Assembly: GCA_964016885.1 (NCBI GenBank)
Contig: OZ024742.1
Coordinates: 326,678,001 to 326,742,000, forward strand
Direction of reading: 5' to 3'
Origin: Eledone cirrhosa
Lineage: Eukaryota
Length of the DNA stretch: 64,000 nt
Below, piece by piece: positions 34,701 through 36,044 of this stretch. Position numbers and translations under genes: made by a program. How positions within the stretch are numbered: position 1 is the stretch's first letter; every line of letters begins with the position of its first letter. Under the pieces are notes generated by a model. That model did no database searches, had not been told where the DNA came from, and was given only the letters and a program-made list of their open reading frames with translations.

Positions 34701-34775
34701 ATACATATATATATAACCAAGAAACAGACAGAATGACGAAATGAAAATAAAAATATATTATCAAATAACCATTAT

Positions 34776-34857
34776 ATCTCTCGGACAGATTATCCCTAAT
34801 CTGTTTCGCCCTGAGTGTGTTTGTAACAGATAATCCTGGGCTTCATCAGCGAGAGAT
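34776..34857 (-). ncRNA. Type I hammerhead ribozyme (inverted copy)
   Basis: Reverse complement of 35551-35632. Confidence 0.88.
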
Positions 34858-35550
34858 TGCGATTAAATGCCACAAACACTATATGCCAACGTTCACACAG
34901 AAAGATGAATTCATCACCTCGTGCTTCGCCAGCCAAACGTGGTAAGCGCGTGTTGAACAGAAATAACAGTCAAACACGCACAACTTAATAGCTCATCCCG
35001 TAAGAGAGCCGAAATATATATATATGAATTAGAACCCTGTAACCATTAAGCTCTAAGTATAAAGTACAAATAAATACTGAGCCGATTAACAATATATAGT
35101 AAGAAACACAGTAAACCGTGTGTCCAAAATTACAAGGGTTGAAAAACCACATATGCTTGAAATATTTAACCAAGAAACAGACAGAATGACGAAATGAAAA
35201 TAAAAATATATTATTTCGTCATTCTGTCTGTTTCTTGGTTAAATATTTCAAGCATATGTGGTTTTTCAACCCTTGTAATTTTGGACACACGGTTTACTGT
35301 GTTTCTTACTATATATTGTTAATCAGCTCAGTATTTATTTGTACTTTATACTTAGAGCTTAATGGTTACAGGGTTCTAATTCATATATATATATTTCGGC
35401 TCTCTTACGGGATGAGCTATTAAGTTGTGCGTGTTTGACTGTTATTTCTGTTCAACACGCGCTTACCACGTTTGGCTGGCGAAGCACGAGGTGATGAATT
35501 CATCTTTCTGTGTGAACGTTGGCATATAGTGTTTGTGGCATTTAATCGCA

Positions 35551-35632
35551 ATCTCTCGCTGATGAAGCCCAGGATTATCTGTTACAAACACACTCAGGGC
35601 GAAACAGATTAGGGATAATCTGTCCGAGAGAT
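35551..35632 (+). ncRNA. Type I hammerhead ribozyme
   Basis: atctctcg CTGATGA a GCCC..GGGC GAA ACAGATTA-ggga-TAATCTGT C cgagagat. 8 bp stem I, 4 bp stem II, 8 bp stem III with GNRA loop; predicted cleavage after GUC 35624. Confidence 0.9.
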
Positions 35633-36044
35633 ATAATGGTTATTGAGGCGGTTTGTATTATTTGATAATATATTTTTATTTTCATTTCGTCATTCTGTCT
35701 GTTTCTTGGTTAAATATTTCAAGCATATGTGGTTTTTCAACCCTTGTAATTTTGGACACACGGTTTACTGTGTTTCTTACTATATATTGTTAATCGGCTC
35801 AGTATTTATTTGTACTTTATACTTAGAGCTTAATGGTTACAGGGTTCTAATTCATATATACATATATATATATATATATATATATATATATATATATATA
35901 TATATATATATATATATATATATATATATATACATATATATATATATATATATATATATATATATATATATATATATATATATATATATATATATATATA
36001 TATATATATATATATACTGTGTATATATATAGAGAGAGAGAGAG

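Follow-up and report, generated by a model that had tools for sequence, protein, structure and literature searches.

An ORF-less hammerhead repeat of Eledone cirrhosa, very probably inserted into a (TA)n run as a non-autonomous Penelope-like element

A repeat of ~470 nt with a hammerhead motif and no open reading frame (ORF) lies in inverted and partial tandem copies within a (TA)n run of the Eledone cirrhosa genome, which raises the question of what kind of element it is and by which machinery it was copied. We addressed this question in a window of 64,000 nucleotides (assembly GCA_964016885.1, contig OZ024742.1, positions 326,678,001 to 326,742,000 of the forward strand; positions below are those of the window) and in further copies of the repeat in the same genome. 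In our assessment, the insertion is very probably a recent copy of an ORF-less hammerhead repeat, a non-LTR retrozyme, that moved into (TA)n as a non-autonomous Penelope-like element (PLE). It was likely copied by the reverse transcriptase (RT)/GIY-YIG protein of a co-resident PLE. An earlier, sequence-only reading of the window had recognized a retrozyme-like monomer but overlooked that the inverted, partial-tandem layout in (TA)n with a tail on one arm is a PLE signature, as described in parts of PMC8557442 and PMC11167929.

Anatomy of the insertion

The insertion and its surroundings are composed of the following parts.

33583–34698, plus strand: flank outside the element, the 3' end (C-terminal part of the endonuclease, and UTR) of a different PLE family that bears an ORF
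34700–34715: short TA run at the left end, ~16 nt
34709–35018, minus strand: inverted arm, monomer positions 1–328 lacking 18 nt (private deletion, junction 34767/34768) and stopping at a minor TA-rich end site
35019–35214, minus strand: inverted arm, 5'-truncated partial monomer, positions 276–471
35196–35212: inversion centre, 17 unpaired bases between the two 5'-truncated ends
35213–35389, plus strand: 5'-truncated partial monomer, positions 295–471, without ribozyme
35390–35860, plus strand: full 471-nt monomer, the 3' copy of the right arm, with relatives 95–100% identical genome-wide
35782–35790, plus strand: internal TA box, monomer positions ~393–401, the tail-less 3' end site in other copies
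35791–35860, plus strand: ~70-nt tail, found on one outer end only of inverted insertions
35854–36031: (TA)n target at the right end

Read on the 471-nt monomer, the plus arm comprises positions 295–471 followed by 1–471, and the minus arm positions 276–471 followed by 1–328 with the 18-nt deletion. The arms (34764–35195 and 35213–35644) differ at a single one of 432 bases, which supports the previous view of a recent insertion with near-identical arms. The view that there is no credible ORF holds as well, the longest ATG-started frame in a dimer of the monomer being 55 codons. The two periods of 453 and 471 bp and the 18-nt indel between them are real, but the shorter variant is private to the locus: the deletion sits between two TTATT repeats, and its junction was found once in the 3.0-Gb genome, at this locus. 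The 453-bp period is therefore a private event and not a second monomer class, and a division into two length classes (453/471) was rejected. The right arm does end at a (TA)n run, as had been stated for each monomer, whereas the left arm stops short of the monomer junction, at monomer position ~324–328, a minor TA-rich site next to the TA run of ~16 nt.

The element sits at the terminal TA run of the left-flank PLE, the 3' end of which matches loci L130 and L207 at 92–98%, both with a GIY-YIG-type frame. A decayed minimal hammerhead is located near 34634–34660 in this PLE 3' end, directly to the left of the element.

The hammerhead motif and its upstream helix

The elements of the motif, given for the right arm unless stated otherwise, are listed below.

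35551–35632, plus strand: type I hammerhead motif, predicted cleavage after C35624
35551–35558 with 35625–35632, plus strand: stem I, 8 bp
35559–35565, plus strand: CUGAUGA core, followed by an extra A at 35566
35567–35570 with 35597–35600, plus strand: stem II, 4 bp, closing a 26-nt loop 2
35601–35604, plus strand: GAAA
35604–35611 with 35616–35623, plus strand: stem III, 8 bp with a GGGA loop, followed by GUC ending at C35624
34776–34857, minus strand: identical hammerhead motif in the inverted arm, core at 34849, predicted cleavage at 34784

Both the conserved core and the three stems of a type I hammerhead are thus present at the locus. The intact fold described by the sequence-only reading was confirmed in its stems, core, loop and coordinates, including the GUC site at C35624, as was the occurrence of one hammerhead per monomer. 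A hammerhead descriptor with minima of 6, 4 and 4 pairs for stems I, II and III had only two matches over the whole window, the right-arm hammerhead and its mirror copy on the minus strand, and none on 200 dinucleotide shuffles of the window. The term canonical was nevertheless an overstatement: loop 2 has 26 nt, Rfam returned no match in the window at the gathering score, and the HH9 model scored 16.4 bits on the ribozyme against a cut-off of 52, so that no match to a curated model (clan CL00010) was obtained. By these comparisons, the putative ribozyme is a variant type I hammerhead outside the curated Rfam models with their usual loop sizes and contacts. Rfam microRNA matches were rejected as a product of the palindrome.

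The ribozyme core is intact in 91 of 99 copies (63 loci), the extra nucleotide being A in 72 copies, U in 18 and G in 1. Such an unpaired nucleotide between A9 and G10.1 is described as typical of PLE hammerheads, and a long stem III is known from fungal and protist PLE hammerheads (sections of PMC4209133). Among 20 older copies, conservation amounts to 95–100% in the stems, to 52% in loop 3 and to 49% in the AT tract; the search pattern had preset the core as well as stem I on its 5' side. Covariation within the hammerhead was not significant (2 pairs, with 73 of 500 shuffles as high; 0 pairs in a second test). In the loci L162, L166 and L171, loop 3 is the reverse complement of the window's stem III loop, which suggests a micro-inversion of the hairpin.

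Loop 2 can also pair with a segment upstream of the motif.

35529–35536, plus strand: upstream strand of an 8-bp helix with loop 2, either a pseudoknot or an inhibitory hairpin
35584–35591, plus strand: loop-2 strand of this helix, pairing with 35529–35536

The alignment columns of the upstream strand are 99% conserved, compared with 66% and 75% on its flanks. Across 21 copies all cells of the helix are paired, and the changes are one-sided only, without compensatory change. As a pseudoknot, the 8-bp helix is compatible with all three hammerhead stems, and such pseudoknots activate many hammerheads (PMC3088659, in part). It is also predicted to be able to lengthen to ~17–19 bp, in which case it competes with stems I and II: when the upstream positions 35529–35540 are included, the lowest-energy fold breaks both stems (-33.6 versus -29.1 kcal/mol). 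RNAfold and RNAalifold favour this alternative hairpin over the hammerhead, as programs in which pseudoknots cannot be represented. On these predictions, the helix may be either an activating pseudoknot or a blocking hairpin, and monomeric cleavage, which the stable stem III had been expected to allow, is plausible but not assured. The construct previously proposed for a cleavage assay (35540–35645) omits the upstream segment of the helix.

The repeat family across the genome

A comparison of the monomer with the genome yielded 1,398 first-look candidates; 40 were scored and showed 95–100% identity on many chromosomes. A 23-nt ribozyme stretch has 450 exact matches in the genome versus 0 for a control, and a motif of an older subfamily, whose copies are ~75–92% identical, has 279 matches, both counts being lower bounds. 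From 60 loci, 38 distinct ones remained after removal of duplicates. Inversions were found in 24 of these, all head-to-head with the 3' ends outward, while 14 are without inversion. The outer ends lie at monomer position ~471 or at the internal TA box (~399–401), and 56 of 61 outer 3' ends in the 38 loci are followed by a TA-type run, in a test that also took CA/TG runs.

The two end sites are used reciprocally. Of the 24 inverted loci, 18 have a tail on one arm only, and L028, at its full length (L218), is the 19th reciprocal locus. The pattern is also reciprocal in all of 12 additional inverted loci whose two arms end at the main sites. Altogether, of the inverted loci that end at the two main sites, 31 of 31 have a tail on one arm and none on the opposite arm, and the same end site on both arms occurs in none of the family loci examined. 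Eleven inverted loci have one arm ending elsewhere, namely 5 of the first 24, the window copy included, and 6 older ones. The first 30 loci were picked with a query biased to the tailed arm, by which a tail-less second arm is not forced.

Tandem arrays contain up to 5 full monomers with a period of ~450–475 nt and a hammerhead in every unit. The genome search for longer arrays that the sequence-only reading had suggested thus turned them up, and its retrozyme-like interpretation is supported for the family by these ORF-less arrays. The most diverged relatives, L193 and L254, likewise have no ORF. A pattern with the same stem II and a shorter loop gave three matches, all of them family members with deletions; of two patterns for more diverged variants, one gave no match and the other two, both ORF-less relatives. 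In the array of L020, which has 5 full units, shared variants alternate between units, and this alternation in L020/L021 suggests the duplication of a dimer. Differences between units within arrays did not tell circular from multimeric templates. Arrays such as L020 or L218 would be the source elements. Among 104 5' breakpoints, 4 lie within 5 nt of the cleavage site against 1.65 expected, an enrichment that is not significant (P 0.09). One non-inverted copy, L008 (G000:C2:226665667 onward), has a possible target-site duplication of 12–13 bp.

Resident Penelope-like elements

The genome contains young intact PLE frames, for example one of 775 aa with RVT_1 and GIY-YIG, and PLE candidates number in the tens of thousands. 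In the window, PLE fragments are located at 40437–41774 and 62814–63266. They belong to truncated copies of two abundant young families on the minus strand (38600–41774 and 62366–63266), the 775-aa one and a second with a hammerhead-like motif at 62525–62551. Several resident families are Neptune-like by their CX4CX2C linker, judged from the description in PMC8557442 alone. The 3' ends of ORF-bearing PLEs have a TA box and an optional tail of ~38–65 nt. When two such ends are paired head-to-head, the tail is on exactly one arm in all 18 resolved pairs (families A 5, G 4, F 4, C 2, D 2 and E 1, in our own lettering; the tally leaves out 3 unresolved pairs and family B). The hammerhead repeat likewise uses its two 3' end sites one per arm.

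The monomer does not contain the RT and GIY-YIG ORF of an autonomous PLE, and none is linked upstream. A search for the partner by sequence, with the family profile over 150 PLE-associated loci (685 kb) that sample the PLE families in part, gave a best E of 0.02. BLAST against the loci of several ORF-bearing PLE families found nothing in common with the monomer. Among 74 family loci, no free 5' end leads into shared upstream sequence or an ORF, save in the chimera L216 (L216:1070–2400; G000:C1:339131000 onward). The tailed minus arm of this locus comes from a PLE related to family F, and in its plus arm the endonuclease end and UTR of the same PLE are joined at monomer position 134, from where the monomer continues to the tail-less site (401). 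This one locus of 74 fits both a template switch in one insertion event and a later deletion.

Mode of copying and rival explanations

Observed directly are the hammerhead motif, the family, the (TA)n targets, the head-to-head arms and the two 3' end sites 70 nt apart, used one per arm. Three features of a non-autonomous PLE are present in the insertions: partial tandems truncated at the 5' end and lying beside an inverted 5' copy, a tail at one end and a bias for (TA)n. PMC8557442, in part, reports the same features for PLEs, the tail being often at one end, as well as non-autonomous head-to-tail copies. Since the inverted pattern with a one-sided tail in (TA)n is shared with the PLEs of this genome, the repeat was likely copied by PLE enzymes, and with such an insertion signature "retrozyme" and "non-autonomous PLE" become the same answer, an equation proposed before in PMC7229834 and bioRxiv 10.64898/2026.07.22.740005. 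According to parts of PMC11167929, AT-rich DNA is cut and extended on both strands by a purified PLE protein, which starts reverse transcription at two sites that bound the tail.

We infer the following course of events. A PLE protein would nick both strands of a TA run, and cDNA synthesis would be primed by both DNA ends, from the TA box in one case and from the end of the tail in the other. If the template is multimeric or circular, synthesis could continue beyond the monomer junction, and joining of the two 5'-truncated cDNAs would generate the inverted repeat. The hammerhead would cut multimeric transcripts from source arrays, the products of which may circularise, and the conserved loop-2 helix may stabilise or gate the cut. 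Such cutting is probable for arrays with at least two units, and the chances that the cut RNAs circularise appear about even.

Three other explanations were weighed. The repeat might represent ordinary pseudo-LTR (3' UTR) fragments of an unsampled autonomous PLE that lost the ORF by truncation alone, which would agree with the purely PLE anatomy, with the PLE-typical nucleotide between A9 and G10.1 (PMC4209133, in part) and with the fact that 150 loci were screened among tens of thousands of PLE candidates. However, in arrays of up to 5 full units each tail is immediately succeeded by position 1 of the next monomer, the 74 loci have no 5' end in shared upstream sequence or an ORF except L216, and even L193 and L254 are ORF-less, so that we regard this origin as improbable. 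A constant attachment of the monomer to a PLE ORF, named in the sequence-only reading as evidence for an ordinary pseudo-LTR, was not seen in the loci examined. Far less probable still is a foldback at the DNA level or a local satellite, with the palindrome being a MITE or a product of template switching during replication, and with an incidental ribozyme. The near-perfect palindrome of 432 bp and the alternating pattern of the L020 array, suggestive of later local duplication, fit such an origin, but terminal inverted repeats are absent, given the variable 5' truncation and the different fixed 3' ends of the arms, an inversion is lacking in 14 of 38 loci, and the copies are spread over many chromosomes. 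A MITE or foldback element is largely refuted by the tally of arm ends.

The third explanation coincides with the preferred one on mobilisation and differs only on the role of the ribozyme, which would be a passenger in a non-autonomous PLE whose uncut multimeric transcripts serve as the template, without circles. Predictions give the alternative hairpin the greater stability and let it form first during transcription, the 5' ends show no clear peak at the cleavage site, and ribozyme mutants of the anole PLE still insert in vitro (PMC11167929, in part). On the other hand, core and stems are kept across subfamilies of 75–90% identity, in contrast to the variable extra nucleotide, loop 3 and AT tract downstream; self-cleavage and circle formation are reported for retrozymes of coral and mussel in parts of PMC7229834; and the upstream helix, if it forms a pseudoknot, leaves room for all three stems, such a contact being known to activate hammerheads (PMC3088659, in part). 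A mere passenger role is therefore rather unlikely, although it is the strongest of the three rivals. It is also conceivable, though not likely, that the helix of loop 2 and the upstream strand switches between blocking hairpin and activating pseudoknot, that circles are copied by a PLE dimer which primes each target strand at a fixed site of its own, and that L216 is a template switch with the RNA of the partner. If true, L216 would be direct genomic evidence of trans-mobilisation.

Relation to known elements

Animal non-LTR retrozymes are defined in PMC7229834, parts of which report that retrozyme RNAs of coral, mussel and axolotl cleave themselves and form circles, and name PLEs as likely mobilisers. 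The preprint bioRxiv 10.64898/2026.07.22.740005 argues for PLE mobilisation from co-occurrence and trees and reports that 1 of 9 Xenopus retrozyme dimers cleaved and 8 did not. Like these retrozymes, the element studied here consists of tandem units without an ORF, each a few hundred bases long and with a single type I hammerhead; it occurs as monomers to multimers and has autonomous PLEs as co-residents. Every retrozyme feature looked for in the sequence was found in the family, and by this measure the element fits the kind already known. Its unit is above the 170–400 nt given in PMC7229834 and inside the 51–972 bp of the preprint, stem III has 8 bp instead of the 1–2 bp of most metazoan motifs, and loop 2 has 26 nt with a conserved helix. 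In contrast to the retrozymes as described there, the insertions are mostly short, inverted and tailed, and are known here from sequence alone.

With the EN+ PLEs Neptune, Poseidon and Naiad and the non-autonomous Chlamys MRC1 (PMC8557442, in part), the element shares partial tandems, an inverted copy on the 5' side, a one-sided tail, insertion into microsatellites and head-to-tail non-autonomous arrays. It differs from them by having no ORF, by a tail of ~70 nt instead of 30–40 bp, and by lacking 3' similarity to any sampled autonomous family. Poseidon PAc of the green anole (PMC11167929, in part) resembles it in the two 3' end sites bounding the tail, the AT-rich target and the use of both strands. 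Unlike the element, PAc is autonomous and its start sites are non-homologous to the target; here both sites are TA-rich, and priming by target homology is thus possible. The stable stem III, compatible with monomeric cleavage, recalls the long-stem-III hammerheads of fungal and protist PLEs (PMC4209133, in part), and the possible base-paired contact from loop 2 to the stem I side recalls pseudoknotted hammerheads (PMC3088659, in part). In contrast to both, this is an animal repeat with a helix that competes in prediction and is without covariation support.

Literature searches listed no paper on this repeat family, which may have an entry in Repbase or Dfam, and the supplements of PMC7229834 and the preprint may hold similar hammerheads from molluscs or other organisms. 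What the locus adds to existing knowledge is an unusual hammerhead variant and evidence from insertion anatomy for PLE mobilisation, which for animal retrozymes had previously been argued from co-occurrence and sequence trees (parts of PMC7229834 and bioRxiv 10.64898/2026.07.22.740005). The one-arm tail in both the retrozyme and the ORF-bearing PLEs of the same genome points to such mobilisation. With its 470 nt, its young age and its two mapped start sites, the element is a compact template that suits the existing in vitro PLE assay, both for trans-mobilisation and for whether the hammerhead or a circle is required.

Transcription and processing at the window copy

The window copy has one ribozyme per arm, unlike the loci L020, L218, L217 and L173, and two cuts therefore cannot free unit-length RNA from it. 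The arms point outward, so that transcription reading through from either side reaches the antisense arm before the other, and for read-through RNA of the whole insertion a 430-bp hairpin that buries both ribozymes is predicted. These points speak against unit-length self-processing from this locus, a process that the sequence-only reading had inferred for tandem transcripts, and on this model the window copy is probably a dead end.

EGF-like exons, flanked by splice signals, lie at ~18880–19033 and 51778–51827 (plus strand) and probably belong to a host gene, and long coding-like tandem repeats are found near them (17671–18861 and 50349–51372). If both exon stretches are part of one gene, this suggests an intronic position of the element. 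In the sequencing run X2, 16 of 18 listed change places over 35213–35865 are T>C on the plus strand. Fourteen of these 16 changes are in a single 233-nt contig (depth 6), and 12 of the 14 are missing from the DNA-like runs X1, X3 and X4. A 5' G neighbour on the antisense strand is present at none of the changes (P ~0.03). X2 has no cover on the nearby exon, and X1 is identical there through exon and intron. In a run whose type is unrecorded and which has no matched DNA, the cluster looks like A-to-I hyper-editing of antisense element RNA, as would be expected of hairpin insertions.

Other repeats in the window

A second inverted repeat of 335 bp (37123–37812) lies beside (TA)n and is ~86% similar to copies elsewhere, which share its layout of arm plus extension; it yielded no hammerhead core. 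Other hammerhead-like motifs are located at 27376–27465, 52685–52798, 55190–55213, 55589–55890 and 58266–58290, several of them in small inverted repeats. Related hammerhead-like motifs form tandem arrays of ~460–490 bp in the loci L132, L134 and L153, and the genome therefore likely has several more retrozyme-like families. A frequent repeat of ~200–300 bp with a ~116-bp palindrome is present at 33080–33373, 36030–36323 and 43556–43790, also at TA runs, and LINE fragments occupy ~8300–9600, 12000–17400 and 30000–33050.
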